DNA of 64,000 nt, from NCBI GenBank assembly GCA_030538075.1, contig JAUNUQ010000006.1, forward strand, positions 22,971 through 86,970, written 5' to 3'. The DNA is from Tissierellia bacterium. Its GTDB lineage: Bacteria; Bacillota; Clostridia; Tissierellales; Peptoniphilaceae. Below, one piece after another: positions 1,677 to 52,384 of this stretch. Position 1 is the first letter of the stretch. The number at the start of each line of letters is the position of its first letter. Under the pieces are notes generated by a model, which saw only the letters and a program-made list of their open reading frames with translations, ran no database searches and was not told the origin of the DNA. The position numbers and the translations under genes are program-made.

Positions 1677-2621
1677 TCAAATGGAGATATTGCGAATCAT
1701 ATCCTCTGTCATTCGATCGATGTCGTATTCAGGACTCCAATCCCACTCTTCTCGAGCACAATGATCATCCAGTGAATCTGGCCAGGAGTCCGCTATCGCC
1801 TGTCGGATCGGATCCACGTCGTAGCTCAGTTCGAAATCTGGAATCTGCTTGCGAATTGCCTCTGCCAATTCCTCTGGTGCAAAGCTCATGGCCGTGACAT
1901 TGAAGGCATTCCGATTGACCAGTCGCGCCGGATCTGCTTCGATCAAATCCACAACCGCTTTTAGCGCGTCTGGCATATACATCATATCCATCTTGGTCCC
2001 CTCAGCTATGAAAGAGGTATAGGCCTTTTTCTGGAGTGCGGCATAATAGATATGCACAGCATAGTCCGTAGTGCCCCCGCCCGGCAGGGTCTTATAGGAG
2101 ATGATGCCCGGATAGCGCACGCCTCTGGTATCCAGACCAAATCGCTTATGATAGTAGTCGCAGAGCACTTCGCCTGCCACCTTGGTCACTCCGTACATGG
2201 TGCTGGGTCTCTGGATCGTCACTTGCGGAGTGAGAACTTTTGGTGTACTGTCCCCAAAGGCCGCGATGGAGCTGGGTGTGAAAACAGAGCAGTTCTCCGC
2301 TCTAGCCACTTCAAGCACATTGACAAGACCTCCCATATTGACCTCCCAGGTCAGATTGGGGAGCTTCTCTCCTGTAGCCGATAAGATCGCCGCGAGATTG
2401 ATGATGGTGTCGATCCGATACTCTTTAACCAATTCGTGTAGGCGCTTTCGATCTGTTACATCCAATGGCTCGAAATGCATTTCTGGAAGTGCCCGTTCCT
2501 TCTTGTCCGATAAGTCTGTCGCCAGGACATTGTCCTCGCCATAACAGTCCCTTAAATAGAGCGCTAATTCCGACCCTATCTGTCCCAGTGCACCTGTGAT
2601 GAGAACCCTTCGCTTCGTCAT
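1677..2621 (-). CDS. NAD-dependent epimerase/dehydratase-fold SDR, L-threonine 3-dehydrogenase-like
   Basis: ORF 1677..2687 trimmed to the ATG at 2621 (GGAGGAAAATA upstream). It has the Rossmann motif VLITGALGQIGSEL and the catalytic YGVTK (YxxxK). Overall it resembles epimerase-like short-chain threonine dehydrogenases. The substrate call rests on family resemblance only. Confidence 0.6.
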   Translation of the reverse strand: MTKRRVLITGALGQIGSELALYLRDCYGEDNVLATDLSDKKERALPEMHFEPLDVTDRKRLHELVKEYRIDTIINLAAILSATGEKLPNLTWEVNMGGLVNVLEVARAENCSVFTPSSIAAFGDSTPKVLTPQVTIQRPSTMYGVTKVAGEVLCDYYHKRFGLDTRGVRYPGIISYKTLPGGGTTDYAVHIYYAALQKKAYTSFIAEGTKMDMMYMPDALKAVVDLIEADPARLVNRNAFNVTAMSFAPEELAEAIRKQIPDFELSYDVDPIRQAIADSWPDSLDDHCAREEWDWSPEYDIDRMTEDMIRNISI

Positions 2622-2761
2622 ATTTTCCTCCTTGAAAGTTGAGAAATCGATATCCTCGTTCATTTTAATAATAACATATTTCCACATATTTGCATAGGAC
2701 TTTTGCTAAGAATCTACACATATTTTCACGAATAACAGTAGAAATTCCAATTTTTTATGAC

Positions 2762-2822
2762 CATAAAATAGGGAACGGATCCTCGTCCCTTAACAGGGGC
2801 AATGATCGGTTCCCTATTTTTT
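2762..2822 (-). terminator. bidirectional intrinsic terminator after yacP
   Basis: Long inverted repeat AATAGGGAACGGATC / GATCGGTTCCCTATT, flanked by an A-run on one side and a T-run on the other. It overlaps the yacP stop codon. Confidence 0.6.
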
Positions 2823-3377
2823 ATAAGGCGGTTTTTCCTTGGGTTGGGATAGCTGTTCTTCTGTTTCAAACTCGTATTGTTCGAGAGCTCGTAAACTCCG
2901 CTCGTCGAGCTTCACCAGATTCCGATGGCTGATTCGCTTTAAGTCCTTTGCCATCCGCTTGCCAGAATTCTTCACCGTCTGGACTTGGATTTTCAGTTCA
3001 GCACCAGATAAGCGGACACCACCGCGACCTAGAATGATATTCTGTATCATGGAGTCCGAGGTGGCCACTTTGACGATATCCTTTCGGCCAATCCGATCCA
3101 ATCTGCGTTCGATATAGGTGTCCGCCGTTTCAAATTCTCGAGTATAGACCACTTCGATGCCCTTATAGCGCTCATGCTTACGCACCGAGCCCTTTACCTG
3201 ATGGGCGTCGAAGATCAATACGACGATTTCTCCCGTCAAGGCGGCGTATTCAGCCATTGTTTCCATCAGTCCCAGGCGGGAGGAGTCCAGTCCAGTTGCC
3301 TCAAAGTCCTGGAGTTCCTCCCACTGGTTGATGATATTATAACCATCTACCAGTAGATAGGTCTTTTTCTTACGCAT
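2814..3377 (-). CDS. yacP: NYN-domain ribonuclease YacP/Rae1 family
   Basis: ORF 2814..3395 trimmed to the ATG at 3377. LLVDGYNIINQW...VVLIFDAH...VVYTREFETADTYIE...VATSD matches the YacP-like NYN pattern. The position after rlmB is the conserved Firmicutes order gltX-cysS-rlmB-yacP. Confidence 0.8.
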   Translation of the reverse strand: MRKKKTYLLVDGYNIINQWEELQDFEATGLDSSRLGLMETMAEYAALTGEIVVLIFDAHQVKGSVRKHERYKGIEVVYTREFETADTYIERRLDRIGRKDIVKVATSDSMIQNIILGRGGVRLSGAELKIQVQTVKNSGKRMAKDLKRISHRNLVKLDERSLRALEQYEFETEEQLSQPKEKPPYKK

Positions 3378-4101
3378 TTTGCCGGAGGACCTCATAGATC
3401 AAAATCGCCGCTGCATTTGATGCATTCAGGGACTCAACCCGTCCCTTCATGGGAAGGCTCACTAGATCATCGCATCGCTCTTTGACCAATCTGCCTAGGC
3501 CACTGCCCTCATTGCCGATGACCAAGCAGACTGCCCCGCGATAATCCGCATCTAAATAGCTCTTTTGCGCGTCACCATCTGCTCCAAATACCCAGATATT
3601 CTGTTCTTTCATCCGCATAATCAGCTCCGCCATGCTATTGACCTTTCCAATTCGCATATGGGCGGTGGCCCCTGCCGAGGATTTGTGCACTGTTTGGGTG
3701 ATTCCACTTGATCGGCGTTTCGACAAGAAGACACCATGCACTCCTGCGGCTTCGCAGGTCCGGATGATCGCGCCAGTGTTGTGAGGATCTTCGATCTCAT
3801 CTAAGGCGACGAGGAAGGGCGGCTCTCCCCTGGACTGTGCATATTCTAGCATATCCTCCAGCTCGTAATAGTTGATGCCCGAGACATGAGCGATCACGCC
3901 CTGGTGTTTGATTCCCTCTGCCAATTCCTCCAGTTTTTGCCGATTCACTTCGACGACGGGAACGCTGGCATCTTGCGCCTTTGCCCGAATCGCCTTCACA
4001 GACCCTTGTAGATCGCCCCTTTGCAGGTAGATCTTATCGATGGCTGCTCCAGATTTCAACAGCTCCATGACGGCATTTCTGCCGGAAATATATTCTCCCA
4101 T
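3370..4101 (-). CDS. rlmB: 23S rRNA (guanosine-2'-O)-methyltransferase RlmB (SpoU/TrmH family)
   Basis: ORF 3370..4200 trimmed to the ATG at 4101, just after the cysS stop. Motifs seen: GRNAVMELL, LDEIEDPHNTGAIIRT, LVIGNEGSGL, SLNASNAAAILIYE. Confidence 0.85.
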   Translation of the reverse strand: MGEYISGRNAVMELLKSGAAIDKIYLQRGDLQGSVKAIRAKAQDASVPVVEVNRQKLEELAEGIKHQGVIAHVSGINYYELEDMLEYAQSRGEPPFLVALDEIEDPHNTGAIIRTCEAAGVHGVFLSKRRSSGITQTVHKSSAGATAHMRIGKVNSMAELIMRMKEQNIWVFGADGDAQKSYLDADYRGAVCLVIGNEGSGLGRLVKERCDDLVSLPMKGRVESLNASNAAAILIYEVLRQNA

Positions 4102-4105
4102 CGCT

Positions 4106-5506
4106 CTACTCAACTCGCTTCCAGACCACGCCGGTTGGGGTGTCTTTGAGCTCAATTCCCATTTCTTTGAGCTGATCTCGGATGGCGTCTGCTCTGGCAA
4201 AATCCTTCGCTGCGCGGGCTGCCTGTCTGTCTTCGATCAGCACTTCGATCGCATTGTCGATGTTCTCCTGTTTTCGAAACAGCAATCCCAATACATCTGC
4301 CAGTTCCATCATCCCCTGATAGACCTTCTCAACTGTGTGGCGCGAGCTGTTTTCATCTAGCTGTGTATTTGCAAGCCGAACGATCTCAAAGAGTGCGGAG
4401 ACGGCATCTGCCGTATTCAAGTCATCGTCCATTACCCGGACGAACTCCTTCTTGAAGTGCTCCAGTTCGGCTAGGATGGATTCCTCCTCATCATTTGAAA
4501 CATCCGCGCAGGTCTCCAGAAGCCTCTCCAGTTTCTCCTTCGCGTTATACATTCGTTCCAAGGCGCTCTTGGATTGCTCCATCACCTCTCTGCTGAAGTT
4601 GATGGGGTTTCGGTAATGAGCGGATAACAGCCAAAGGCGTATGATCTCACGATTGTATTGCTCCGCAATATCTCGAACCAAAAAGAAATTGCCGAGAGAC
4701 TTACTCATCTTTTGGTTGTCCACATTGATCATCCCGTTGTGCATCCAGTATTTAGCAAAGAGCTTTTCCGTTAAAGTCTCCGTCTGGGCAATCTCATTTT
4801 CATGATGGGGAAATTGCAAATCCTCTCCCCCCGCATGGATATCAATTGTATCGCCTAAGATCGACCTGGACATGACCGAGCATTCGATATGCCAACCGGG
4901 GCGTCCCATCCCCCAAGGGCTGTCCCAAGCAGGCTCCGATTCTTCTTTTCTCCGCTTCCACAGGGCAAAGTCCAACGGATCCGCCTTTTCGTCCCCAGCC
5001 TCAATTCTGGCGCCAACCTTTAGTTCATCGATATTCTTTTTTGAAAGCTTCCCATAACCCTCTGCCTTATCGATGTCAAAATATACATTGCCATCCACTG
5101 CATAGGCGGCTCCCTTGTCCTCTAATCCCTTGATAAACTCGATCATCTGTGGGATATACTCGGTTGCCTTGGGGTGAATCGTATGACTATCCAAAATATT
5201 GAGGCCTTGACAGTCCTCTAGATAGGCATCGGTGTAGCGTTCACTGATCTCTAAGAAGTGGACGCCCTCTTCTTTTGCCTTGTTTATGATCTTATCGTCG
5301 ATGTCTGTAAAATTGGACACAAAGGTCACCTTGTACCCCCGATACATCAGATACCGACGAAGGGTATCGAAGATCACGATGGGCCTGGCGTTTCCTATGT
5401 GAATATAATTGTACACCGTCGGTCCGCAGACGTAGATCTTCGCCTCGCCTGGGATCAGTGGCAAAAAATCTTCCTTTTTTCTAGTAAGTGTATTATAGAC
5501 GCGCAT
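4106..5506 (-). CDS. cysS: cysteine--tRNA ligase
   Basis: 466 aa with class I signatures HIGN (YNYIHIGNARP) and KMSKS (QKMSKSLGN). AGGGAGG RBS upstream. Confidence 0.95.
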   Translation of the reverse strand: MRVYNTLTRKKEDFLPLIPGEAKIYVCGPTVYNYIHIGNARPIVIFDTLRRYLMYRGYKVTFVSNFTDIDDKIINKAKEEGVHFLEISERYTDAYLEDCQGLNILDSHTIHPKATEYIPQMIEFIKGLEDKGAAYAVDGNVYFDIDKAEGYGKLSKKNIDELKVGARIEAGDEKADPLDFALWKRRKEESEPAWDSPWGMGRPGWHIECSVMSRSILGDTIDIHAGGEDLQFPHHENEIAQTETLTEKLFAKYWMHNGMINVDNQKMSKSLGNFFLVRDIAEQYNREIIRLWLLSAHYRNPINFSREVMEQSKSALERMYNAKEKLERLLETCADVSNDEEESILAELEHFKKEFVRVMDDDLNTADAVSALFEIVRLANTQLDENSSRHTVEKVYQGMMELADVLGLLFRKQENIDNAIEVLIEDRQAARAAKDFARADAIRDQLKEMGIELKDTPTGVVWKRVE

Positions 5507-5621
5507 CTAAACCTCCCTGAACTGTGGTTCTGTTCACTTATCCATTTGCTTCTTTATCTGTTTCACGATCCAAAGCCATCCCGAACGGATGAGATCAATC
5601 AAAATTCACATACTCTCTCCT

Positions 5622-7085
5622 CTAGTCTGTAAGGCGCTTGAGCAATATGTCCTTGCCCAATAGCTGGATCACATTCACTAGCTCTGGGCCATGGACTTTC
5701 CCCGTCAATAGGGCTCGCATGGGCATGAACAGGTCCTTCCCCTTTACACCCGTCTGCTTTTGGATTCGCTTCATGATGGATTTTGCAAAAGCCTCATCCA
5801 CGACCTCTACTTCGTTCAGCGCTTCTATAAATGCAGTTCTCAGAGCGGGGACATGTTCCTTTGCCGCGTACTCAACGGCATCTGCCTCGGTGATGTCCAC
5901 CTGATCGATGAAGAGGAAACGGGCCTGCGCCTGGATGTCCATCAGCCTATCCAAGCTGTCCTTAAAGGTATTGCCAAGGAGGGTCAGCTTCGCAGCCGGA
6001 TAGTCCCCAGTGATCAGCTTCTCTTCCAATAGATAGGGCTTTAGGAGCTCACCCAATTCCTCATCTGAATATTTCTTGATATGATGGGCGTTGACCCAGT
6101 TGAGCTTATCTCGATCGAAGATTCCACCTGTCTTGGAGACCCTTTCAAATCCAAATTGCTCTACGAGCTCCTCCATCGTCAGAATCTCTTCTGTACTATC
6201 CGGAGACCAGCCCACTAGAGCCAGATAGTTGACCAATCCCTCTGGCAGATAGCCCTGGGCGATAAAGTCCTCCACCGCCACATCGTCGTTTCGTTTGGAT
6301 AGTTTTTTTCGATCTCTGTTCAACACTGTTGGGAGATGGACAAATACTGGCGCTTGCCATCCAAAGACCTCGTAGAGATACACATGTTTCGGTGTAGAGG
6401 GCAGCCATTCGTCTCCTCTAACGATATGGGTGATTCCCATCAGATGGTCATCCACGACCACGGCAAAGTGGTAGGTGGGAAAGCCATCGGATTTAATGAG
6501 CACTTGATCATCCATATCATTGGTGTTGATGACGATTTTTCCCTTCACTTCGTCCATGACGACAATGTCCCGGTTGACCGGCAGTTTTAAACGGATGACA
6601 TGCTCTTCTCCTGCTGCGACACGCTCCCTGGCTTCTTCCAGAGTCACCGCTCGGCAGAGCCCATCATAGCGTGGAATCAGGCCATCGGATTTCTGCTGCT
6701 CCCGAAGATGATCCAGTCTCTCCTTTGAGCAAAAACAATAGTAGGCGTCTCCCCTCTCTAGGAGATCTTCGATATATCGATCGTAAATCCCCTCTGCCAT
6801 TCGCTCCGATTGGATGTAGGGGCCAAATTCTCCCCTCTGTTCTAAGCTGCCATCGGCATTTAAGAAAACCCCTTCATCATAGGTGATACCCGCCCATTGT
6901 AGAGAACGAATCAAATTCTCCAAAGCCCCCTCTACAAAACGAGTGCGGTCCGTATCCTCAATTCGCAGGATGAACTTTCCATCATGTCCCTTCGCATATA
7001 GATAATTATATAATGCTGTGCGAAGCCCTCCAATGTGTAAATATCCCGTGGGACTTGGTGCAAAACGCAATCTAACTCCTGTCAT
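5622..7085 (-). CDS. gltX: glutamate--tRNA ligase
   Basis: 487 aa with RFAPSPTGYLHIGGLRTA (HIGH) and KKLSKRN (KMSKS-type). The start overlaps the upstream stop as ATGA. Confidence 0.95.
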   Translation of the reverse strand: MTGVRLRFAPSPTGYLHIGGLRTALYNYLYAKGHDGKFILRIEDTDRTRFVEGALENLIRSLQWAGITYDEGVFLNADGSLEQRGEFGPYIQSERMAEGIYDRYIEDLLERGDAYYCFCSKERLDHLREQQKSDGLIPRYDGLCRAVTLEEARERVAAGEEHVIRLKLPVNRDIVVMDEVKGKIVINTNDMDDQVLIKSDGFPTYHFAVVVDDHLMGITHIVRGDEWLPSTPKHVYLYEVFGWQAPVFVHLPTVLNRDRKKLSKRNDDVAVEDFIAQGYLPEGLVNYLALVGWSPDSTEEILTMEELVEQFGFERVSKTGGIFDRDKLNWVNAHHIKKYSDEELGELLKPYLLEEKLITGDYPAAKLTLLGNTFKDSLDRLMDIQAQARFLFIDQVDITEADAVEYAAKEHVPALRTAFIEALNEVEVVDEAFAKSIMKRIQKQTGVKGKDLFMPMRALLTGKVHGPELVNVIQLLGKDILLKRLTD

Positions 7086-8728
7086 TCCCTTCCTCCTGTT
7101 CTCGTATTCGCGCCGCTGAGCCCTTTGTGTTGATGGGCCCTAAGCCTCTCTATATGCTTGATCGCCACTATCCCGTTGATATTGAGCGCTCGATCGGAGA
7201 GGGAGTCAAACTCCTCCTTCGATAGAATCTGGTACCAACGGTGGATATGGGTGTCGTATGAACCCTTCAACTCCCTATTCTTGCGACGAGCCACGAGGCT
7301 GCGAAAGAGTTCAGAGGACAACAGTCGCACGACGTCTTTTAGTTCGTATTTCAGATCCAATTTTGGCGCTCTGGAGGGCCCTGCTCCAATCGCATCCCGA
7401 AGGGGTTGCTGAAACGCCTTTGTATAGATATAGTGCAGATTTCTCTCGTATCTGTATTCGATTGGAACCCGCATCCAAAAATCCACCACTTCTTTGTCCC
7501 AGAGCAGCATTCGCCAAGGATGTCCAAAGTATTCGTAGACCCTGATGCTGTTGGCCAAAAACTTGCCATGTTTTTCCTTCCAATCGTAGTATTCCAATAG
7601 CTCACATGCCTTTTCTCGGGGATACTGCCCCCCAGGGGGCAATAGTTTGGTCATGTCCTGGATCATCGAAGCCCGATGGGAATTCACCTGCGCCGTCCAT
7701 TTGGCATTTCCGGCTAGTTCCCTGAGATTCTCGGTGATCAGTCGCTCTTTGGAGATCTGATCCCGTAGTAAAAACAGTTTGGGGATGTGGTTCCCATGGA
7801 GCAGGTCCCCCGTATGGCCGGGGGCGAAGATGGCATCCTCTGGAATTCTCCCCTCTTGAACCAGCGCTTTGACCGCATGAAAATCTTGAAAATGAGGTAT
7901 GGAGACGAGATTGCTAGCGTAATCCGAAAAGTCCTGAAATTCCTCGGACTCATACCAAGCTCTCCAGTCCAGATCGTCATACTCCAAAAAATACCAGGGA
8001 TATCCCAAGTAGTCTGCGATTTTTTTAGAGATCTCCCCTTCGAAATTACCCCTTTTACCATAGGAATAGCAGATGACTTTTTCATAACCAATCTCGTGTA
8101 GAGCATGGACGACCAATCTGGAATCCTCTCCACCAGAGAGTGGGATGACGATGGTACGACCCTGGATGTCCTGAACAAAACGACTTGCCGCTTTGGTGTA
8201 GACCTCGTATAGATCCTTCGCCCATTCCTCAGGAGAACCAGAATATTTCTCCTCGTAGGACAGATTCCGATACTCTAATACCTCCAGCGTTCCACGCTGC
8301 TTATCATAGAAGAGACATTCTCCGTTTCCAAGTCCATGGATCTCTTCGGATAAGGTCCGATTGCCCCAAGTGATACCTGACACCAAGAGCTCTGCAGCAG
8401 CCACCTCGTCAATTGTCAGCTTCCCTTTAAGGAGCTGGGCTGCGGTGTCGCTGAGCTCCAGCTTATCATCCAGCCTATAGAATAGGGGGATGCTTCGGAT
8501 GAAATCCACAGCGGCAAAGAGAAATTCCTCAGTATCCAGGACCAAGGCAAAACAGCCATTCCACTCTTTAATAACTGTAGATAATTCCCCGATGGTCCTC
8601 TTGCCTCTGAATCTCTCTGCGAGATGCTGAATCCCATTGGAGGGGGAATCGGTGTAGAGATAGCCCTTGAAATGCAGATCTCCAGACTGCTCCCAGGCAT
8701 ATCCCCTGTTATTTATTAATCTCATCAT
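7082..8728 (-). CDS. asparagine-synthetase-like PP-loop adenylating enzyme lacking the N-terminal Cys nucleophile (copy 1, PP-loop intact)
   Basis: 548 aa. It has the PP-loop VIPLSGGEDSRLV (SGGxDS). The N-terminal half has an AsnB-like block FAAVDFIRSIPLFY, but the protein starts MMRLINN with no Cys2. The second ATG at 8725 is equally possible. The stop overlaps the gltX start. Confidence 0.6.
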   Translation of the reverse strand: MMRLINNRGYAWEQSGDLHFKGYLYTDSPSNGIQHLAERFRGKRTIGELSTVIKEWNGCFALVLDTEEFLFAAVDFIRSIPLFYRLDDKLELSDTAAQLLKGKLTIDEVAAAELLVSGITWGNRTLSEEIHGLGNGECLFYDKQRGTLEVLEYRNLSYEEKYSGSPEEWAKDLYEVYTKAASRFVQDIQGRTIVIPLSGGEDSRLVVHALHEIGYEKVICYSYGKRGNFEGEISKKIADYLGYPWYFLEYDDLDWRAWYESEEFQDFSDYASNLVSIPHFQDFHAVKALVQEGRIPEDAIFAPGHTGDLLHGNHIPKLFLLRDQISKERLITENLRELAGNAKWTAQVNSHRASMIQDMTKLLPPGGQYPREKACELLEYYDWKEKHGKFLANSIRVYEYFGHPWRMLLWDKEVVDFWMRVPIEYRYERNLHYIYTKAFQQPLRDAIGAGPSRAPKLDLKYELKDVVRLLSSELFRSLVARRKNRELKGSYDTHIHRWYQILSKEEFDSLSDRALNINGIVAIKHIERLRAHQHKGLSGANTRTGGRE

Positions 8729-8747
8729 ACCTCCTAGAGTAATGCTC

Positions 8748-9302
8748 TTATAATAGATGGAAGAGCAGGTCCTCTTCTAATTCTCTTCTCTTATCCGAGC
8801 CCATTATCTCCTCGACGATCTGCAATGCGAAGAGCATGGCCGTGGCGGGACCACGAGAAGTGATCAATTTCCCATCGGTCACAACCAATTCCTCTGAGTG
8901 GCTCGCGCCTTCTAGCTCTACTTCCAGTGTAGGATAACAAGTGGCCGTCTTTCCCTTTAAAATGCCTGCTGCAGCGAGCACCAATGGACCGGCACAGATC
9001 GCAGTCACCCATTTACCACCTTGGTACATCTCACGAACGAGTTCTAATACAATTGCCGAAGCCCTTAGATTATTGACGCCTCCCATTCCTCCAGGCACCA
9101 CCAATAGGTCAAATTCACCCGTTAAAGTGTCTAAAGTCTCATCCGCCTCTACTTTAAGACCATGGGCTCCCTCAACCAACTTGTCCGGATGGATGGAGAC
9201 CGTCGTCACGTCCATCCCCCCTCGTCGAAGGATATCGACCTGTGTTACAGCTTCAATTTCCTCAAAGCCCTCTGCAAATAAAATCAATGCGGTTGTCATC
9301 AT
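8748..9302 (-). CDS. DJ-1/PfpI family protein (class I glutamine-amidotransferase-like fold)
   Basis: 184 aa with FEEIEAV..DLLVVPGG..VTAICAGPLVLAAAG (nucleophile-elbow Cys)..ITSRGPATA, typical of DJ-1/YajL/ThiJ. Confidence 0.85.
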   Translation of the reverse strand: MMTTALILFAEGFEEIEAVTQVDILRRGGMDVTTVSIHPDKLVEGAHGLKVEADETLDTLTGEFDLLVVPGGMGGVNNLRASAIVLELVREMYQGGKWVTAICAGPLVLAAAGILKGKTATCYPTLEVELEGASHSEELVVTDGKLITSRGPATAMLFALQIVEEIMGSDKRRELEEDLLFHLL

Positions 9303-9315
9303 GTCCTCCTTATGG

Positions 9316-10929
9316 TTATTTGATCTGATAGTTGTTGTCCTTGCAAAAATCCCGTAGGTATTTCACCGAGAGCGCGCCGTGAATATTCGTGATACTATCA
9401 CTGAAGTGTTCGAACTCCCTACGACTGAGTATGTTATACCAGAGCATTGGATGATGGTCATACTCACCTTTTATCCGATTTGCGCGCAGTAAAAAGCTCA
9501 ATCTGCGATATATTCCGGGGAAGCGGCTTCGCATGAAGTCTTTGAGTCCTGCCGTAGGCAGAATTGCCCTGACTCCAGAAATCCCAATGTATTCCAAGAG
9601 CTCGGCTTCATAGCGCAGATCCAGTTCTTGTTGAATCCGTTGGGTGTATTTATACGCATCTGGCACCCTCTCCCAGAACTCGAGAATCCCCTTTTCCAAT
9701 TGAATATTTCTCCATTGGTAATGGTACATCTCATAGATGCGTCTGGAGTTCGTTTGATTTTTACCCGTGCGTTCTTTCCAATAGGCGTAGCGGAACTTCC
9801 ATGAAGCAGATGCCTCTTGGAATGCTGGATTATCTGCGTGCTTATTGAAAATATCCTCAATATAGTCGCCGATCATCTGGTAGTCCCTGCGTTGCCATTT
9901 GATATTCGAAGCGATCTCGTCCAGAATTTCCATCCTCAGTATATCCTCTGAAGGCGGATTCTCCTGTATCAGGGTCGTAGGCATTTCCTCTCCGCGGAGG
10001 ATATTCGTAAAACAGACATTGACAAAGATTGCATCTGCGGGGACCATTCTCTTTTCCATCAGAGCTTTCACCGCTAAATATTCAGAGATATTGGGAATGG
10101 TCACCAATTGTGAACAATAGTCTCGATATTTGCGATAATCTGGTCCAGTAAACCACTTAAACCAATCCACCGCCTTATATTCGATAAAATACCAGGGATA
10201 CTCATAGTATTCGGCAATTCCTCTGGCCAGCGCCACCTCTGGATTTTCTAGTCCTCCATAGGTGTAGCAAATCACCTTTTCAAAGCCCAGCTCTTTAAGC
10301 TTGCGCACCAGAATCCTCTCCCACCAGCCTGAGGTCAAGGGGATGACAATGGTGCGATCCCGTAGGCCATCTAGACCACCGAGTACCGCTTGGGAGTAGA
10401 CTGCATCCGCCTCTTCCACCAACTCCTCCAGCGGTCGATCGACCTGATTGTCCTGGATGATGCTCATGTATTCATTGATGGTCAAAGAGCCACTCCGCTT
10501 ATCGTAGTAGAGGATCTCCCCACATCCCAAGGTCTGGATCTCCTGATAGAGGGTGCGATTGCCGAAGGCCGTACCTGCTATTCTAAGCTCTCGCACCGCG
10601 ATCTCATCTACCGTTGGCTCTTTGATCAGCTTCAAAATTCCGTTGGGCGAATCAGAAACGATCAGTTTCTGGTCCCGCATACTGTAGAACAGGGGATAGG
10701 ATCTCGCAAAGTCCACTGCTGCAACGAGAAAATCATCGGTCTCTCGCAGTATGGAAAACTCTCCGTTCAGATCCTGAATATATTTTTCATAGTCCTCTAA
10801 GGCTTCTAGCCCCAACAGATCCTGTAGGATCTTCTCATGGTTCTGAGAGTCGTTGTAAAAATAGCCCTTGATATAGCACTCTTCACGTTCATGCCATTGA
10901 AAAGCGTCATTTTTCGAAAGAAGTATCAT
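9316..10929 (-). CDS. asparagine-synthetase-like protein, paralogue of 7082..8728 with a degenerate PP-loop (predicted non-catalytic)
   Basis: 537 aa, alignable by eye with copy 1 through the blocks VAAVDFARSYPLFY, GNRTLYQEIQTLGCGEILYYDK, RTIVIPL, EKVICYTYG, YPWYFIEY, AVKAL and PADAIF. TSGWWER replaces SGGEDS, and VNVCFTN replaces PGHTGD. Confidence 0.6.
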   Translation of the reverse strand: MILLSKNDAFQWHEREECYIKGYFYNDSQNHEKILQDLLGLEALEDYEKYIQDLNGEFSILRETDDFLVAAVDFARSYPLFYSMRDQKLIVSDSPNGILKLIKEPTVDEIAVRELRIAGTAFGNRTLYQEIQTLGCGEILYYDKRSGSLTINEYMSIIQDNQVDRPLEELVEEADAVYSQAVLGGLDGLRDRTIVIPLTSGWWERILVRKLKELGFEKVICYTYGGLENPEVALARGIAEYYEYPWYFIEYKAVDWFKWFTGPDYRKYRDYCSQLVTIPNISEYLAVKALMEKRMVPADAIFVNVCFTNILRGEEMPTTLIQENPPSEDILRMEILDEIASNIKWQRRDYQMIGDYIEDIFNKHADNPAFQEASASWKFRYAYWKERTGKNQTNSRRIYEMYHYQWRNIQLEKGILEFWERVPDAYKYTQRIQQELDLRYEAELLEYIGISGVRAILPTAGLKDFMRSRFPGIYRRLSFLLRANRIKGEYDHHPMLWYNILSRREFEHFSDSITNIHGALSVKYLRDFCKDNNYQIK

Positions 10930-10991
10930 TCATGATCCCCCATAGGAATTTCTAGTTTAATGATCCAATAGAAAACAAATCGTCATTGTAT

Positions 10992-13847
10992 TTATTCTAC
11001 CATATCCTCGTCATTTGTGGGATAGCGGCGACCTAGGACGGGTTTCAGAAACTGTCCTGTAAAAGAGGCTTCACAGGCAGCCACTTCCTCTGGCGTGCCG
11101 CAGCATACCAGTTGACCACCTGCATCCCCGCCTTCTGGCCCCAAATCAATAATATAATCTGCCGTCTTGATCACATCCATATTGTGTTCAATCACCAGCA
11201 CGGTATTGCCTCCCTCTGCCAACTGGTCCAAAACCCGGATCAATTTGTGGATGTCTGCAGCATGAAGGCCTGTCGTAGGCTCATCTAGGATATAAATCGT
11301 CCGACCTGTTGCGCGTTTACTCAGCTCAGAGGCGAGCTTCACCCTCTGGGCCTCTCCACCAGACAGCTCCGTTGAAGATTGTCCCAGTTTGATATAACCT
11401 AGCCCCACCTCGGACAGAGTTACGATCTTTCGGGAGATCGAAGGCAGATTTTCAAAAAACTTCACAGCCTCTTCTACGGTCATGTCCAGTACATCGGCGA
11501 TGCTCTTGTCCTTGTACTTTACCTGTAGGGTCTCTCTATTGTATCGCTTCCCCTTACATACCTCACAAGGCACGTAGATATCCGGCAGAAAATGCATCTC
11601 CACTTTGATCGTGCCGTCCCCGCTACAGTGTTCACAGCGCCCCCCTTTGACATTGAAACTAAAGCGTCCCTTTCCATATCCCCTCATCTTGGCATCTGGG
11701 GTCATCGCGAAGAGCTCTCGAATCTGGTCAAATACCTTTGTATAGGTAGCCGGATTGGAACGAGGGGTTCGGCCGATTGGGGATTGATCGATCTCGACGA
11801 CTTTATCTAAATGCTCAATCCCCAGAATCTCTCCATAAGCACCGGGCTTGGTCTTTGCACGGTTGAGTCGATTTGCCAATACTTTATGCACGATTCCATT
11901 GATCAGGCTGCTCTTGCCCGACCCAGATACTCCAGTCACACAGGTGAAAACGCCCAAGGGTATCTTGATATCTAAGTTCTTTAAGTTATTCTCCCGAGCA
12001 CCTCGAATCTCCAAATACTTATCCGATTCTCTTCGCTTCAAGGGGATTGGGATCTGCTTTTTCCCAGATAGATATTGGCCGGTAATCGAATCCTCAGCGC
12101 TGAGGATGTCCTCTAGGGAGCCCTCGGCGATCACTCTACCGCCGTGCACTCCTGCACCTGGTCCAATATCCACGATATAGTCCGCTGCGCGGATGGTCTC
12201 TTCGTCGTGTTCTACGACGATCAAGGTGTTTCCAATATCCGTCAATCCCCGCAAGGACTTTAGCAGTAGAGAGTTGTCCCTCTGGTGCAGCCCGATACTC
12301 GGCTCATCCAGGACATATACTACACCGATCAGACTGGATCCGATTTGTGTGGCCAGTCGAATGCGCTGGGATTCTCCACCGGACAGAGTTCCAGAGGAAC
12401 GGGCGAGGGTCAGATAGCCCAGCCCCACTTCCTTCAGGAAGTTCAGACGAGCGCGGATCTCCTTCAGCACTTGCTCACCAATGGCCTCTTGGGTCTTGGA
12501 GAGCTGAAGATTTTGAAACCATGCCAGAGAGGAGATGACCGGCAGTTCCGTGACTTCCGCAATATTTAAGTCATTGATCCGTATGGACAAGATCTCTGGG
12601 CGCAGTCTCTTCCCGCCACAGGCTGAGCATACCGTCTCAACCATATAGTCTTCTATCTTATCCTTCATATAGTCTGATCCCGTCTGGTGATATCTTCGGT
12701 TTAAGTTGGGGATGACGCCCTCCCAGCTCCCTAAGAATTCCTTGTTCCCTGTAAAATGGGACTCGAATTGAAATCGGAGCTGCCTACTACCGGTGCCATA
12801 TAAGATGTCTTGTATCATCTGTTCCGGTGCTTGGGCCAATGCCTGATCAATTGGAAAGTCATAGCTCTTGGCGATGGCTTTGAAGATCTCATAATAGTAG
12901 GTTCCATTCTTAGAGGTGCTAAAGGGATCAATCGCCCCTTCTGCCAAGCTGAGCTCCCGATTTGGGATGATCAGCTCCGGGTCTATCTCTGCATGAAAAC
13001 CCAAACCATTGCATTCTTCGCACATTCCAAAGGGACTATTGAAAGAAAAAGATCTCGGTTCGATCTCCTCGATGGAGATATGGTTGTCAGGGCAGGCCAG
13101 CTTTTGGCTAAAGGTGAGGAGTTCCCCATCTATCACTTGGATTTTAACGAGGCCCTCTGACAAATGCAGGGCCGTCTCCAGTGAGTCGCTGAGCCTGGAC
13201 TGGATCCCCTCTTTGACCACCAATCGGTCGACGACGATGTCGATATCGTGTTTTTTATTTTTCTCCAGTTTGATCTCATCTGTGATCTCGTATTCCACAC
13301 CATCTGCGATCACCCGATTAAAGCCCTCTTTGCGTATATTGGCCAAGAGTTTAACATGTTCACCCTTCTTGCCTCGAACCACCGGCGAGAGAAGCAAAAA
13401 ACGGCTCCGCTCCGGAAGCTCTAATACCCTATCTACGATTTGATCAATGGACGAGGCGACGATCTCCTTTCCACAGACGGGGCAATAGGGCGTGCCCACT
13501 TTGGCAAAGAGCAAACGCAAATAGTCATAGATCTCTGTCACAGTTCCCACCGTCGAACGGGGGTTCTTGCTCGTCGTCTTTTGGTCAATGGCAATGGATG
13601 GGGACAGGCCTTCGATATACTCCACATCGGGCTTGTCCATCTGTCCAAGAAATTGTCTCGCATAACTGGAGAGGGACTCGACATAACGCCTCTGCCCCTC
13701 TGCATAAATCGTATCAAAGGCCAGGGAGGATTTCCCCGATCCACTCAAACCGGTAAATACGATCATTTGATCGCGCGGGAGCTCCAAATCTACCGATTTT
13801 AAATTATTTTCCTTCGCTCCCCGAATCGTAATTTTATCTAAACTCAA
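10992..13847 (-). CDS. uvrA: excinuclease ABC subunit A
   Basis: 951 aa with two Walker A sites ([18 protein letters not shown]) and zinc-finger cysteines ([25 protein letters not shown]). The TTG start overlaps the uvrB stop as TTGA. Confidence 0.95.
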
Positions 13848-15811
13848 TGTCTAAGCTTCCTTATCTCATCTCGTAGGTTAGCAGCCCGCTCAAACTCCAA
13901 TTGCTCCGCTGCCTTATACATCTCTTCTTCTAATCGTATGATCAAGCTGTCTAAATCCCCTGGGGGAATGTCCACACTATATTCGACTTGCTCTTCTGCG
14001 GCGACTGTCGCCTCTATGATATCTCGTATGCCCTTGACGATGGACGTCGGGGTGATGCCATGCTCCTGATTATAGGCATCTTGGATCGCCCTTCTGCGCT
14101 CGGTCTCGTCAATGGCCCGCTGCATGGATCCAGTGATCTGATCTGCATACATGATGATATGGCCACTCACATTCCTGGCTGCTCGACCGATGGTCTGAAT
14201 CAGCGAAGTCTCCGAACGGAGGAAACCCTCCTTGTCCGCATCCATAATCGCAATCAGAGATACCTCCGGGAGATCGAGCCCCTCGCGAAGTAGGTTGATT
14301 CCGACGAGGACATCATATACTCCGAGGCGCAGATCGCGAATGATCTCCATCCGCTCGATGGTCTCTATATCCGAGTGCATATAGGTGACCTTGATTCCAA
14401 TCTCCTGCAGATATTTGGTCAAATCCTCTGCCATCTTTTTCGTCAAAGTGGTGATTAATGTCCTTTCACCCTTTGCCGTCGTGCTGTGAATCTCATGGAT
14501 CAGATCGTCGATCTGGTTTTTGGTCGGCCTTACTTCCACTGGCGGATCCAGCAGACCCGTTGGACGAATCAGCTGTTCGACCGCATCTGGGGTCTGCTGG
14601 AATTCATAGGGACCGGGCGTTGCAGAGACATAGACGATCTGATTTACCATCCCCTCAAATTCCTCGAATTTCAGTGGTCGGTTGTCGAGGGCAGAGGGCA
14701 AGCGGAAGCCATACTCCACCAAATTCTCCTTACGGGCTCGGTCTCCGTTGTACATGGCTCGAATTTGGGGTATGGTGGCATGGGATTCATCGATGATGGT
14801 CAAATAGTCTTTTGGAAAGTAGTCGATCAGGGTATAGGGCTTACTCCCAGGCTCCCTTTCACTCAGATGGCGGGAATAGTTTTCGATGCCGGTGCAAAAT
14901 CCCATCTCATTGAGCATCTCCATATCGTAACGGGTTCGCTGCTCCAATCGCTGCGCCTCCAAGAGCTTGTCCCTTTCCCTGAAATAGGCCAATCTCTCTT
15001 CGAGCTCTCGGTCAATCGTTCCAATTGCTCGCTCGATCTTCTCCTGTGTCGTCGCATAATGGGATGCTGGAAAGATGGACACATGGCTGCGCAGCCCCAG
15101 CACCTCTCCCGTCAGATAGTTGATCTCCGTGATTCGATCGATCTCGTCACCGAAGAATTCCACACGGATGGTGTTCTGATCCGTTGAAGCCGGGAAGATA
15201 TCGAGGCTGTCACCACGGACACGAAAAGTTCCCCGCTCAAAATTGACATCATTTCTGAGAAATTGGATGCCGATCAGTGCGCGGATCACGTCATCGCGAT
15301 CCTTAGTCATCCCAGGGCGTAGAGACACCATCAGATTCTCATAATCGATGGGATCCCCCAGTCCGTAAATACAGGAGACCGATGCGACAATGATCACATC
15401 TCGGCGCTCAAAGAGGGCTGCCGTGGCAGAGTGCCTGAGCTTGTCGATCTCATCATTGATAGAGGAGTCCTTCTCGATATAGGTATCTGTCATGGGCACA
15501 TAGGCCTCTGGCTGATAATAGTCGTAGTAGCTGACGAAATACTCTACGGCACTGTCCGGAAAGAACTCCTTGAATTCGCTGGCCAATTGATAGGCCAAGG
15601 TCTTGTTATGTGCAATCACCAGGGTTGGTTTCTGCACCTTTTCTATGATATTCGCCATGGTAAAGGTCTTGCCTGAACCCGTTACACCCTTCAGGATCTG
15701 GTGCTTCTCACCCTGCATTAGACCTTCGGAAATCTTCTGAATGGCCCGAGGCTGATCCCCTGTTGGCATAAAGGATGACACTAGGCGAAAGGATTGATCT
15801 TCGATGGTCAT
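13844..15811 (-). CDS. uvrB: excinuclease ABC subunit B
   Basis: 655 aa with GVTGSGKT Walker A, a DESH-type box ([11 protein letters not shown]) and a C-terminal UVR motif ([20 protein letters not shown]). Confidence 0.95.
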
Positions 15812-15948
15812 AGGTCCTCCTCACATAGCACAAACCGGGATCGATCTCCCGGTCCTTTTTCATGTCCTACAATAATAGATACAGAGTCATTATATCATTC
15901 CATTGGACTTTCATAAAGAGATCTATTCCCAGTTCCTATTCAATCAAT

Positions 15949-15998
15949 AAAAAAAGCGCATCCCCTTCAGTACTTCACTGAAGCAGGATACGCTTTTT
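15949..15998 (-). terminator. intrinsic terminator after the TRAP operon (bidirectional shape)
   Basis: Stem GCGCATCCCCTTCAG / CTGAAGCAGGATACGC, flanked by an A-run (giving a T-run on the minus strand) and a T-run. It lies immediately downstream of the permease stop at 16002. Confidence 0.6.
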
Positions 15999-16001
15999 GA
16001 C

Positions 16002-18128
16002 CTATTCTACGGCGACGGATTTCGACTTTTGATCCTGTGCATCTCGGTTCTTCTTTCTCCTAGATTGAACAAAATACATCAGAATAACCACGGCCAAGCC
16101 GATGGCATCGGAGATCCAACCAGGGATCAAAAGGCATAGAGCAGCGATAAAGAGTATGAGGCGTTCGTAGAGCTTTGCATGATCGAACAGATAGCCCTCC
16201 AGCGCTCCTCCAAGGCAGACAATGCCCAATATGGCCGTTAGGATATTTGGCAATGCATCCATTATAGACAGCCAGTGGATCGTGGATCCTACCGTGTCCT
16301 GAACCATGATCAGCGCTGGATTGATCGCGAATATATAGGGCACTATAAAGGCCGCCAAGGAGAGCTTGAAAGCCTGCACCCCCGTCTTCATCGAGTTCGC
16401 ACCCGCTATTCCCGCGCCAGCATAAGCGGCGAGAGCCACAGGCGGAGTGACATCGGCGACTACGCCGAAATACAAAATAAATAGATGTGCCGCCATCAGA
16501 TTGACATTGAGTTTTGTAAGGGCTGGCACTGCCATTGTCGCCAAGACAATATATTTTGCCGTCGTGGGCAATCCCATTCCCAAAATCAACGATGCCACCA
16601 TCGTCAGAGCGAGGGTTGGAATCAGCATTCCTCCTGCTACCTGTACGATCAATTCCGCGATCCTAAGACCAAAGCCCGTCAAGGTGACGACGCCAACGAC
16701 CATACCCGCACAGGCACAAGCACAGATCACTCCCAGCGCAGCTTTTGCTCCAGAGTCCAGCGCTGCGAGGATGTGGCTGAGCGTGAAGGAATTGTCCTTC
16801 TTAATTATGGATGCAGCTAGGGCAATCACTACGGCGGAGACGATTCCAATCAATGCGGCTAGAGTTGGAGTATACTGCTTGATCAGCATATAGATGATGA
16901 TGGCCAGTGGGATGACCAGATATCCTTGCTCTTTAAAAATCAAGCTGAGTTTTGGGAGCTGACTCTTGGGAACTCCTTTCAGATCCCTCTTACAGGCCTC
17001 CAAATGCACCATCGTGCCTATGGCAAGGTAGTAGAGCAGAGCGGGAATAATCGCCGCTTTTACGATTTCAATATATTTAAATCCAGTAAAATCTGCCATG
17101 ATAAAGGCTGCCGCCCCCATGACTGGTGGCATGATCTGTCCACCTGTGGAAGCTGCTGCCTCAACTGCACCTGCATAATAGGGCGGATAACCTGTCCTTT
17201 TCATCAGGGGAATGGTAAAGGCCCCGGTGGTCACCGTATTGGCTACGGAAGAACCGGAAATGGAGCCCATCAACCCACTGGATACGACTGAGGTCATCGC
17301 AGGGCCGGATTTTGTATTTCCCGTTAAGGCAAAGGCGAAATCAATAAAGAATTTCCCCACACCTGTCTTTTCTAGAAAGGCCCCGAAGAGAATGAACATA
17401 AAAACGAAAGTGGAGGATACTCCCAAGGGCGTACCGAGGATCCCCTCGGTGGTCAAATACATATGGCTGACAATCCTCTGGACGCCAAACCCTCGATGGG
17501 CTAACATGCCGGGCATCTTGCGTCCAAAATAAGCATAAATCAAAAACACGATCGTCACGATCGGCAGTTCTGGACCGACGACTCGCCTGGTCACCTCCAG
17601 TGTCAGCAAGATGGCGAGTACGCCAAAGATATAGTCGATCTGGGTCATCTGTCCGCCTTTGATGGCAATGGCTTCGACATTCATAAAGATATATCCAAAG
17701 ACTACGACGGACAGCACCATCAGGATATAATCCAATATACTTGGCTTCTCCTTTGAAGAGTTCTTCCAAGCGGGATACAGCAGAAAGCCCAGCGCAAAGG
17801 CGAAGACCACATGTAGGGATCTCTGCTTCATGGCGAGTAGCGTTCCAAAAGCTGCGGTATAGACATGGAACAGGGACATGACGATGGCGATCACAGTGGC
17901 GACGATCGCAATGGGCCCAACGAGCTTTCGCAATTTGGAGCTGTCCTTATCATATTGTTCCAATAGGTCATCCACATCATGTTCCTCATAATCGGACATG
18001 ATGGGAGTGGATTGTTCTTGGTTCACTCCATTGTCATCGTTCGGTAATTTCTCGGATGGATTCTCTACTTCCGTAGCTGATTCGCCGGATTGTAGGATCT
18101 GTTTCTCATTCGAAGGATCTCGATTCAT
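16002..18128 (-). CDS. TRAP transporter fused permease (TAXI-type, 4TM/12TM fusion)
   Basis: ORF 16002..18206 trimmed to the ATG at 18128, which follows GGAGGTG with good spacing. It is a very hydrophobic multi-TM protein sitting downstream of the TAXI binding protein and DUF1850, the usual operon layout. Confidence 0.8.
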   Translation of the reverse strand: MNRDPSNEKQILQSGESATEVENPSEKLPNDDNGVNQEQSTPIMSDYEEHDVDDLLEQYDKDSSKLRKLVGPIAIVATVIAIVMSLFHVYTAAFGTLLAMKQRSLHVVFAFALGFLLYPAWKNSSKEKPSILDYILMVLSVVVFGYIFMNVEAIAIKGGQMTQIDYIFGVLAILLTLEVTRRVVGPELPIVTIVFLIYAYFGRKMPGMLAHRGFGVQRIVSHMYLTTEGILGTPLGVSSTFVFMFILFGAFLEKTGVGKFFIDFAFALTGNTKSGPAMTSVVSSGLMGSISGSSVANTVTTGAFTIPLMKRTGYPPYYAGAVEAAASTGGQIMPPVMGAAAFIMADFTGFKYIEIVKAAIIPALLYYLAIGTMVHLEACKRDLKGVPKSQLPKLSLIFKEQGYLVIPLAIIIYMLIKQYTPTLAALIGIVSAVVIALAASIIKKDNSFTLSHILAALDSGAKAALGVICACACAGMVVGVVTLTGFGLRIAELIVQVAGGMLIPTLALTMVASLILGMGLPTTAKYIVLATMAVPALTKLNVNLMAAHLFILYFGVVADVTPPVALAAYAGAGIAGANSMKTGVQAFKLSLAAFIVPYIFAINPALIMVQDTVGSTIHWLSIMDALPNILTAILGIVCLGGALEGYLFDHAKLYERLILFIAALCLLIPGWISDAIGLAVVILMYFVQSRRKKNRDAQDQKSKSVAVE

Positions 18129-40745: not shown

Positions 40746-40860
40746 ATTCCACCTCACTTAAACTTAAGTATATAATAGGAACGAAGAAATGAAAAGCAAT
40801 GAAATTTCGCTACCCTATCGACAATAATTAAAGATTTCGGAAAATTCATGCAAAATTCAC

Positions 40861-40890
40861 TTGCAAAGTACCCCCTCTTTATGCTATTAT
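40861..40890 (+). promoter_or_regulatory. sigma-A type promoter of tRNA-Leu(CAA)
   Basis: TTGCAA (40861..40866), an 18-nt spacer, then TATTAT (40885..40890). The tRNA starts 16 nt downstream. Confidence 0.5.
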
Positions 40891-40905
40891 CTATTGGTAA
40901 CTTAA

Positions 40906-40992
40906 GCCGAAGTGATGGAACTGGCAGACGTGCTGGACTCAAAATCCTGTGGTGGCAACACCGTGCGGGTTCAAATCCCGCCTTCGGCACCA
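40906..40992 (+). tRNA. tRNA-Leu (anticodon CAA), CCA encoded
   Basis: GCCGAAG-TG-ATGGAACTGGCAGACGT-G-CTGGA-CTCAAAA-TCCTG-TGGTGGCAACACCGTG-GCGGG-TTCAAAT-CCCGC-CTTCGGC-A-CCA. It is a class II cloverleaf. Anticodon-stem pair 28:42 is a U-U mismatch. Confidence 0.85.
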
Positions 40993-40997
40993 ATCAT

Positions 40998-52378: not shown

Positions 52379-52384
52379 GAAGAT

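Follow-up and report, generated by a model that had tools for sequence, protein, structure and literature searches.

A conserved asparagine-synthetase-like pseudoenzyme candidate beside a DJ-1 gene at the uvrA-gltX junction of some Tissierellia

The locus between uvrA and gltX

The sequence considered here, which we refer to as the window, is a stretch of 64,000 nucleotides (nt) from a Tissierellia bacterium (assembly GCA_030538075.1, contig JAUNUQ010000006.1). Our interest lies in three minus-strand open reading frames (ORFs) that are packed between uvrBA and gltX-cysS-rlmB-yacP and that encode, in order of reading, an asparagine-synthetase-like protein (copy 2), a protein of the DJ-1 family and a second asparagine-synthetase-like protein (copy 1). 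The positions of these genes, of their motifs and of their neighbours are collected in Table 1. A first-pass annotation made from the sequence alone had described three tightly packed genes with internal gaps of 19 and 13 nt and an ATGA overlap between the stop codon of copy 1 and the start codon of gltX, and these coordinates were reproduced exactly. Each start codon of the triad is preceded by a Shine-Dalgarno-like AGGAGG or GGGGGA, and in the relatives discussed below the last gene lies 1-14 nt from gltX, so that co-transcription with gltX is plausible when judged from spacing. The spacer between uvrA and copy 2 (62 nt) contains one promoter-like match, but promoter- and terminator-like matches over positions 2600-16200 were overall no more frequent than expected from shuffled sequence and operon structure is not inferable from them.

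Conservation of the triad in relatives, on which the first-pass annotation had made its proposal depend, holds in part. The complete order uvrBA-copy2-DJ1-copy1-gltX-cysS-rlmB-yacP was found in four lineages (the window, L001/L002/L003, L004/L005 and L010, with copy 2 of L004/L005 truncated by the contig end), whereas in two further lineages (L011 and L012, with 13-18 kb of each genome covered) copy 2 and DJ-1 stand alone between uvrA and gltX and the locus has no copy 1. Copy 2 and DJ-1 are thus neighbours in all six lineages, separated by 0-15 nt in five of them, and the adjacency of uvrA and gltX is equally constant. The hosts in which a live and a dead copy flank the DJ-1 gene form a small group of gut-type anaerobes.

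Comparison of the genes between these six lineages, with the close pair L001/L004 set aside, gives the identity ranges listed in Table 1. Judged from these ranges, copy 2 is vertically inherited and about as constrained as rlmB and yacP, and it is better conserved than copy 1, the fastest-evolving gene of the block. Constraint of this degree rules copy 2 out as a decaying relic, and it also weakens the idea that copy 2 is a mere scaffold for copy 1.

In the relatives the left flank of the locus reads ftsX-pcsB-ctpB-uvrB-uvrA and the right flank gltX-cysS-rlmB-yacP. Both are conserved, generic Firmicute housekeeping blocks, and the triad sits at their junction. The first-pass annotation had taken the embedding of the triad among genes of the translation apparatus to raise the possibility of an RNA or aminoacyl-related substrate, a suggestion that loses its footing once the two flanks are recognised as separate blocks of this kind. 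We infer that the position beside gltX reflects this junction and not a role in translation, and neither the proteins themselves nor the surroundings of their family give any hint of an RNA or aminoacyl substrate.

A live copy, a dead copy and a DJ-1 protein

The two asparagine-synthetase-like products had been proposed to be mutual paralogues, and a full-length alignment with 35% identity (E = 4e-110), far beyond chance, bears this out. Neither begins with the Cys2 nucleophile of a glutaminase domain, as had been noted, the N-termini reading MMRLINN in copy 1 and MILLSKN in copy 2. The proposed asparagine-synthetase-type layout of both proteins is in line with AlphaFold2 (AF2) models of high confidence (copy 1: predicted local distance difference test (pLDDT) 93.9 and predicted template modelling score (pTM) 0.92; copy 2: pLDDT 94.2 and pTM 0.93). 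Searches with these models in Foldseek placed beta-lactam synthetase, CarA, ASNS and TsnB9 on top for copy 1 and TsnB9, beta-lactam synthetase, ASNS, CarA and AsnB on top for copy 2, and the strong PDB matches of both copies (E 1e-10 to 1e-14, template modelling (TM) score ~0.45-0.59) are exclusively beta-lactam synthetase, CarA, TsnB9, human ASNS and Escherichia coli AsnB. On the evidence of these models, both copies are predicted to share the two-domain fold of asparagine synthetase B and beta-lactam synthetase, with an N-terminal nucleophile (Ntn)-type N-domain and a PP-loop-type alpha/beta C-domain.

Copy 1 is the live member of the pair in the sense that its PP-loop, SGGEDS, is intact, as the first reading of the sequence had stated. 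It also carries PGHTGD, a block conserved across the family, and the spacing of this block, ~105 residues past the PP-loop, suggests that PGHTGD, or PGHxGD in its general form, is the counterpart of the SGEGSDE or GYGAD active-site loop of AsnB and beta-lactam synthetase. On Pfam Asn_synthase (PF00733) copy 1 reaches 29.4 bits, above the gathering threshold of 21, and on TIGR01536 it reaches 30.3 bits against a cut-off of 267.1. Its homologues are full-length proteins of bacteria and archaea with 29-39% identity and E-values of 1e-54 to 1e-100 (among the best 120 of 153 matches), and where they carry a name it is 'asparagine synthase-related protein'. The clade of copy 1 itself (the window protein with P0002, P0003, P0268 and P0269) deviates from the family consensus at R-x-P-L-W-D, where Met or Leu stands in place of Pro and, in three of the five sequences, Asn in place of Asp; Gln132 is likewise substituted. 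An insertion of ~16 residues in the N-domain of the copy 1 orthologues is not present in copy 1 of the window.

Copy 2 has neither catalytic motif. At the position of SGGxDS it reads TSGWWE and at that of PGH(S/T)GD it reads NVCFTN, a double loss that had been proposed for the window protein and that we find throughout its clade. A proper alignment might have restored ATP-binding residues to copy 2; instead the PP-loop, PGHxGD and neighbouring ATP-site residues are all replaced. The protein has no Pfam match at E <= 0.1, PF00733 included, and reaches 14.2 bits on TIGR01536 (cut-off 267.1). Its close relatives number about a dozen at 43-58% identity and come only from metagenome-assembled genomes of Tissierellia/Peptoniphilaceae and from Microaceticoccus formicicus AMB_02, which is cultured and has a complete genome; when each GTDB species was represented by a single genome, a scan found the clade of copy 2 in three species. 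This clade, which includes the divergent members P0265 and P0266, is what we call the dead clade, and its members are annotated as hypothetical proteins only and are without a Pfam match. As far as this clade is concerned, the view that no described system matches the triad accordingly stands.

The way in which the dead clade has departed from the live family is regular. None of its 13 sequences has SGGxDS; the pattern in its place is x-x-x-W-W/F-x-R, with the consensus x-x-G-W-W-x-R, and the PP-loop Asp has become Trp in 10 of 11 representatives. At the PGHxGD site all 11 of 11 representatives have Asn for Pro and 8 of 11 have Val for Gly, neither the His nor the Asp survives, and every member carries an NVCFT-like sequence. 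The positions dropped are S198, G199, D202 (replaced by Trp), S203, S234, Q281, P303 (by Asn), G304 (by Val), P408 and W410, and with them the His and Asp of PGHxGD. Every conserved position of the live family in the N-domain is kept (W12, G22, G56, D73, R76, P79, F81, Y82, D93, E114, T126 and Y154), D73, R76 and P79 of the N-domain signature being invariant in live family and dead clade alike, and several in the C-domain are kept as well (R205, Y224, G225, A239, W246, A286, G313, K390, N394, R397, Y399 and W406). Across nine copy 2 orthologues we counted 130 invariant columns, with a mean column identity of 65%. Read from these alignments, the loss of motifs is fixed across the whole dead clade and aimed at the nucleotide and catalytic site, and the residues that replace them, WW and NVCFT, are conserved in their turn.

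The gene between the two copies had been assigned to the DJ-1/PfpI fold with an intact AICAGP nucleophile elbow. This assignment is secure, with 169 bits on Pfam DJ-1_PfpI (cut-off 26.6) and 187.8 bits on TIGR01383, the DJ-1 family glyoxalase III model (cut-off 131.25), and the residues invariant in the family are present (the Glu pair E14/E15, Cys103 and Y123-P124). Its identity to DJ-1 proteins of other triad or pair loci (46-55%) is similar to that with DJ-1 proteins from Clostridium, Halanaerobium, Gallionella/proteobacterial and other sources (45-53%). No triad-specific residues were found in the DJ-1 alignment, the protein looks generic among 1350 homologues, and the nearest DJ-1 genes outside the triad (P0151 and P0155) sit in unrelated contexts. 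On GATase_3 (PF07685), the model of GatD/CobQ-type glutaminases, it scores 14.1 bits (E = 0.036), below the threshold of 27. The middle gene thus encodes an ordinary DJ-1/YajL-type protein that is distinctive only by its constant place beside copy 2.

Table 1. Genes and motifs at the locus, with the range of protein identity between the six lineages (close pair L001/L004 set aside; its own value is given in brackets)
Feature	Position	Strand	Basis	Identity between lineages
copy 2, 537 residues	9316-10929	minus	ORF and translation	47-68%
N-domain family signature AAVDFARSYPLFYS, kept in copy 2	10681-10722	minus	aligns with GRDxxGxxPLF of human ASNS	
degenerate PP-loop TSGWWE of copy 2, SGGxDS expected	10318-10335	minus	aligned position	
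NVCFTN of copy 2, PGH(S/T)GD expected	10003-10020	minus	aligned position	
DJ-1/YajL-type protein, 184 residues	8748-9302	minus	Pfam DJ-1_PfpI and TIGR01383	43-55% (L001/L004 76%)
nucleophile elbow AICAGP of DJ-1, Cys103	8985-9002	minus	sequence motif	
copy 1, 548 residues	7082-8728	minus	ORF; Pfam Asn_synthase	41-56% (L001/L004 85%)
PP-loop SGGEDS of copy 1	8120-8137	minus	aligns with PP-loops of CarA and ASNS	
PGHTGD of copy 1	7805-7822	minus	conserved family-wide	
gltX (glutamate--tRNA ligase), neighbour read as outside the system	5622-7085	minus	TIGR00464, 549.6 bits	64-80%
cysS, downstream flank	4106-5506		Pfam and NCBIfam	66-78%
rlmB, downstream flank, ORF as called	3370-4200	minus	Pfam and NCBIfam	52-71% (L001/L004 88%)
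yacP, downstream flank			57% identity to a NYN_YacP orthologue	45-71% (L001/L004 93%)
uvrA, upstream neighbour	10992-13847	minus	Pfam UvrA domains; 62-nt spacer to copy 2	67-83%
uvrB, upstream flank	13844-15811		Pfam and NCBIfam	77-91%

The wider family and the reading of the triad

A search with a profile of the copy-2 clade yields, at E <= 1e-30, 1622 cluster representatives (clusters at 50% identity). Copy 2 itself is related to the listed members of the wider family at E 1e-28 to 1e-42 and 20-28% identity. Cys2 is absent from all 287 family sequences sampled, and all of these except the 13 of the dead clade carry an S/T-x-G-x-D-S PP-loop; no NCBIfam model attains its cut-off on any family member tested. 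The family profile aligns to human ASNS from about residue 100 onwards, with the region of Cys1, Arg49 and Asn74-Gly75-Glu76 missing, and the family motif LNGxFA...AVDxxRSxPLFY matches LDGVFAFVL...GRDTYGVRPLF of ASNS. Given that the alignment begins only there, what the family keeps of the Ntn glutaminase domain is just its second half, and it would therefore be unable to hydrolyse glutamine.

Members of this family are frequently found next to genes for polysaccharide export. In Pseudoalteromonas a member follows wza-wzc-wbpA-wbpB-wbpD-wbpE-wzx, in Parabacteroides one overlaps the 3' end of wzx, and in Clostridium perfringens one lies within a capsule locus. A metagenome scan with a 14-sequence profile yielded 464 relatives, of which 80 loci (L024-L103) were kept. 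The ORF directly upstream of the family member encodes a Polysacc_synt_3/Wzx flippase in 29 of 68 cases, often overlapping it by a few bases, and a glycosyltransferase of family 4 (GT4) in 6 of 68; downstream, and within two genes on either side, there are more Wzx and GT4 proteins together with DegT proteins, hexapeptide acetyltransferases, UDP-N-acetylglucosamine (UDP-GlcNAc) 2-epimerases and UDP-sugar dehydrogenases. Two proteins are natural fusions of an N-terminal Wzx and a C-terminal family member (P0336, 1044 residues; P0402, 1006 residues). In Porphyromonas gingivalis, PGN_1234, annotated 'asnB', lies directly downstream of porR (wbpE) and porS (wzx), and its deletion abolishes the uronamide of the T9SS (type IX secretion system) linking sugar, a glucuronamide; the protein has 17% identity to true WbpS/WbqG (PMC7468200). 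The order wbpE-wzx-asnB around PGN_1234 is the same as that around the family member P0044. By contrast, there is no reason to place the asnB product of Tannerella forsythia, Tanf_01265 (605 residues, predicted to act on the acetamidino group of pseudaminic acid (Pse)), in the family, judged by its description as having a conserved AsnB domain. A search of the literature on enzymes for amide-linked O-antigens and capsules found nothing relevant.

The clade at hand differs from this picture. A home in a polysaccharide locus, which the first-pass annotation had named as something that would speak against its proposal, is characteristic of the family, whose members are Wzx-adjacent or Wzx-fused, but it does not hold for this clade: in the window and in L001-L012 the triad or pair has only its uvrA and gltX flanks, and Wzx, glycosyltransferase and sugar-nucleotide genes are all absent from its surroundings. 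Neighbour-joining of 285 family sequences places the dead clade and the copy-1 clade in one clade of 20 tips, whose only other member is the live protein P0270; such a grouping fits a lineage-specific duplication. Among live proteins, P0270 (L021-L023, 10001-11638) stands closest to the dead clade. Its gene looks monocistronic, with a divergent cobalamin (cbi) operon on one side and a convergent thiI-iscS pair on the other, and neither polysaccharide genes nor a DJ-1 gene lie around it. Given the stand-alone position of P0270 and the context of the triad, the whole sub-clade would therefore have left the polysaccharide context before the duplication took place.

Taken together, our reading of the triad has several parts, and as a joint account we hold its chances to be about even: copy 1 would be an active amide synthetase that joins a carboxylate to ammonia or an amine, copy 2 a conserved, non-adenylating pseudoenzyme whose role is independent of the adjacent copy 1, DJ-1 an ordinary member of its family, and the link to gltX one of position. 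In the wider family, ATP would be used to adenylate a carboxylate, most plausibly the uronic-acid carboxylate of a glycan precursor, and free ammonia or an amine would then attack the adenylated carboxylate to give the amide. Because copy 1 has all of the PP-loop and active-site motifs and no glutaminase, adenylation followed by amide formation with ammonia or an amine is its probable chemistry, and on the strength of these motifs we take it to be an active amide synthetase. Its own substrate would not be predictable from the family, the sub-clade being out of the polysaccharide context. A carboxylate of a cell-envelope glycan might be considered; the organism encodes surface proteins anchored by CWB2 repeats, and no glycan genes lie near the triad. 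Copy 2 would have arisen by duplication of a copy-1-like gene and then lost the PP-loop, the PGHxGD loop and adjacent ATP-site residues, and it is probably unable to adenylate. It would have kept the N-domain signature and the helix of the C-domain that carries the Lys, Asn, Arg and Tyr residues, and it might still bind the ligand or partner of the family through these elements in a binding, regulatory or scaffolding role without catalysis.

Several observations sit uneasily with this reading and need to be set against it. Genomes in which copy 2 and DJ-1 stand alone at the locus may carry copy 1 at another site, and the constant adjacency of copy 2 and DJ-1 is compatible with a real functional pair. 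Stand-alone family members exist in Methanosarcina and in Natronorubrum, the latter being the single match in a plasmid collection, and the copy-1/copy-2 sub-clade and P0270 are themselves outside polysaccharide loci, so that the usual role of the family may not apply to them. PGN_1234, for which a mutant phenotype is published, probably belongs to the Cys-less family, as judged by synteny and by the published 17% identity to true WbpS. The tree of 285 sequences, finally, carries no support values.

The first-pass annotation had favoured an obligate heteromer in which copy 1 and the dead copy 2 together form an adenylating and amidating enzyme, DJ-1 acts in trans as a glutaminase-like donor of ammonia and the substrate is an RNA or aminoacyl compound tied to gltX. 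Asparagine-synthetase-B-family enzymes are oligomers, and the full-length paralogy of the copies, their tight packing with the ATGA overlap into gltX and the survival of the triad in four lineages would all fit such an arrangement, as would the lack of a glutaminase in the family and a DJ-1 protein that offers a class-I-amidotransferase-like fold with its Cys elbow intact. We nevertheless regard it as quite unlikely. Two of the six lineages (L011 and L012) have copy 2 and DJ-1 without copy 1 at the locus, and the supposed scaffold is better conserved than the enzyme, which together argue against an obligate heteromer with a dead scaffold. As for DJ-1, the proposal of a dedicated partner in trans is weakened by a score above the glyoxalase III equivalog cut-off with only 14 bits of the required 27 on GATase_3, by its generic similarity to other DJ-1 proteins without residues specific to the triad, and by its absence from the 25 commonest Pfam families in both sets of neighbouring ORFs at the 80 loci of the wider family. 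The flanks, being generic syntenic blocks, lend no weight to the supposed substrate either.

A functional module of copy 2 and DJ-1 apart from copy 1, in which copy 2 presents a carboxylate- or amide-bearing ligand or protein to DJ-1, or regulates it, would explain why the two genes are adjacent in six of six lineages, why copy 2 is under strong purifying selection and why the N-domain signature and K390/N394/R397/Y399 are kept when the ATP-site residues alone are lost. This adjacency may, however, be inherited synteny within one narrow clade in which uvrA and gltX are equally constant neighbours, and the DJ-1 protein, itself generic, has diverged more quickly than copy 2, so that we consider the module rather unlikely. 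A more elaborate version, which we think unlikely, would have a Trp-Trp/NVCFT pocket in place of the ATP site make copy 2 the specificity or regulatory subunit of a DJ-1 Cys hydrolase or deglycase, or else, with copy 1, the non-catalytic half of an asymmetric amide synthetase, co-expressed with gltX-cysS and directed at a carboxylate- or amide-bearing target. Copy 1 could alternatively be a housekeeping ammonia-dependent amidating enzyme, for asparagine synthesis or the amidation of a peptidoglycan precursor, with copy 2 as its regulatory paralogue. The housekeeping contexts of the sub-clade (cbi and thiI-iscS for P0270, uvrA and gltX for the triad), the stand-alone archaeal members and a murT gene in the window without an adjacent gatD, an unusual organisation for cell-wall amidation genes, go some way towards this; yet copy 1 reaches 30 bits where the asparagine synthase cut-off is 267, is dispensable at the locus in two lineages and evolves faster than any other gene of the block, which is atypical of a core biosynthetic enzyme, and we judge this account very unlikely. 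That copy 2 is a functionless, decaying duplicate is essentially refuted and hardly credible: it has lost all adenylation motifs and any Pfam match, as such a relic would, but its full-length ORF is intact in every lineage, its orthologues retain the invariant columns and mean column identity given above, its conservation is on a par with rlmB and yacP and above copy 1, the replacement motifs WW and NVCFT are themselves conserved, and the AF2 model has a pLDDT of 94.

If our reading of copy 2 as a non-adenylating pseudoenzyme is correct, the protein would represent a clean natural example of a pseudoenzyme derived from an adenylating amide synthetase, in which only the ATP-site residues have been exchanged, for new conserved ones, and in which the dead copy is more constrained than its live sister. 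It would lend itself well to work on the repurposing of PP-loop enzymes, with a cultured and fully sequenced host in Microaceticoccus formicicus AMB_02. O-antigens and capsules commonly contain amide-modified uronic acids, for whose synthesis the enzymes are in large part still to be assigned. The parent family of ~1600 clusters, which is coupled to Wzx, has no curated NCBIfam model and is weakly covered by Pfam, would then be a probable general route to such amide-modified uronic acids in surface glycans. The tie to translation could be dropped, which would spare work on RNA or aminoacyl substrates.

Some further features of the window and of the flanks were seen in passing. Upstream of uvrB (15812-19732) the window has a TRAP/TAXI transporter, consisting of a DctM fusion (16002-18206) and an NMT1_3 binding protein (18656-19732), where the relatives L001, L010, L011 and L012 have ftsX-pcsB-ctpB, and the G+C content of the window is 47.5% compared with 33-43% for the loci of the relatives. 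The rlmB ORF as called has a TTG start that gives a 95-nt overlap with cysS; as the RlmB profile is matched from residue 35 onwards, translation probably begins further downstream. A T-box leader (52153-52380, minus strand, 101 bits) lies upstream of an ORF for a class Ib aminoacyl-tRNA synthetase of the TrpRS/TyrRS family (51120-51992, minus strand), which as listed begins at profile position 44, so its true start is probably further upstream. CWB2 cell-wall-binding repeats occur in three proteins (52551-53900, 59455-60792 and 61577-63115, minus strand), the last of which also has WG beta repeats; the presence of these repeats would imply a surface of the S-layer type that is held by a secondary cell-wall polymer. 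The murT-like gene (MurT_C and Mur_ligase_M domains; 41340-42635, minus strand) has no gatD in the flanks examined (40758-41339 and 42664-44286), where short ORFs and a tRNA, followed by polA, lie downstream and RNase J upstream. The glutaminase partner of this MurT must be encoded elsewhere or be absent.

Likeness to known systems

The systems that most resemble copy 1 in structure are beta-lactam synthetase (1JGT/1MBZ) and CarA (1Q15), which have the same two-domain AsnB fold with a Cys-less, non-catalytic N-domain and, as in copy 1, a C-domain that adenylates by means of a PP-loop. They are the top Foldseek matches of copy 1 (E ~1e-13, TM score 0.47-0.58) at 12-16% identity, and CarA is the sole PDB match to copy 1 by plain sequence search, with the similarity confined to the PP-loop. 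These enzymes close a beta-lactam ring intramolecularly, whereas the Cys-less family is linked to Wzx instead and copy 2 has no PP-loop. The catalytic residues of beta-lactam synthetase are Tyr348, Glu382 and Lys443; a conserved Lys (K389/K390) is present, and the Tyr/Glu dyad was not located. No clavam or carbapenem biosynthetic cluster was found near the triad, and beta-lactam synthetase proper was set aside as an unlikely identification.

True AsnB was rejected, as neither copy has Cys2 and the scores of 30.3 and 14.2 bits fall far short of the cut-off of 267.1. AsnB and ASNS (TIGR01536, PF00733) share with the family the fold, the GRDxxGxxPLF-type motif of the N-domain and, in its live members, the PP-loop and R-x-P-(F/L)-(L/W)-D; they differ in that the Cys-less family is without Cys1 and has ~50 unrelated residues in place of the first ~100 of the glutaminase domain. 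AsnB-type amidotransferases such as WbpS/WbqG are glutamine-dependent and have an N-terminal Cys. These and the amidotransferases of XrtA/PEP-CTERM systems (TIGR03108) would be alike to the family in the sense of an ATP-dependent conversion of a uronic-acid carboxylate to the amide in polysaccharide loci. The enzymes of TIGR03108 are ~630 residues long and separately curated, and membership was rejected on a score of 24.5 bits for copy 1 against a cut-off of 816.9 and no match for copy 2. A lasso-peptide or macrolactam cyclase (NF033535, NF033561) was rejected too, since neither copy matches these models and precursor and B-protease neighbours are absent; weak matches, well under the cut-offs, occur in distant family members only. 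The anti-phage defence models of PADLOC gave no matches for the three triad proteins.

The MurT/GatD lipid II amidotransferase offers an analogy for the combination of an ATP-dependent, carboxylate-activating enzyme with a separate glutaminase of class I fold. It differs in that DJ-1 is not a GATase of the GatD/CobQ type, and the window has a MurT of its own. DJ-1 is instead a bona fide member of the DJ-1/YajL group defined by TIGR01383. With the Wzx-adjacent 'asparagine synthase-related proteins', to whose listed homologues it has 28-38% identity along most of its length, copy 1 shares the Cys-less architecture, SGGxDS and PGHxGD, and copy 2 differs from them in having no catalytic motifs. 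In outline, then, the superfamily and its Cys-less branch are already known, through beta-lactam synthetase, CarA and the label 'asparagine synthase-related protein'; what is new is a clade-restricted, conserved pseudoenzyme beside DJ-1, which has not been described.

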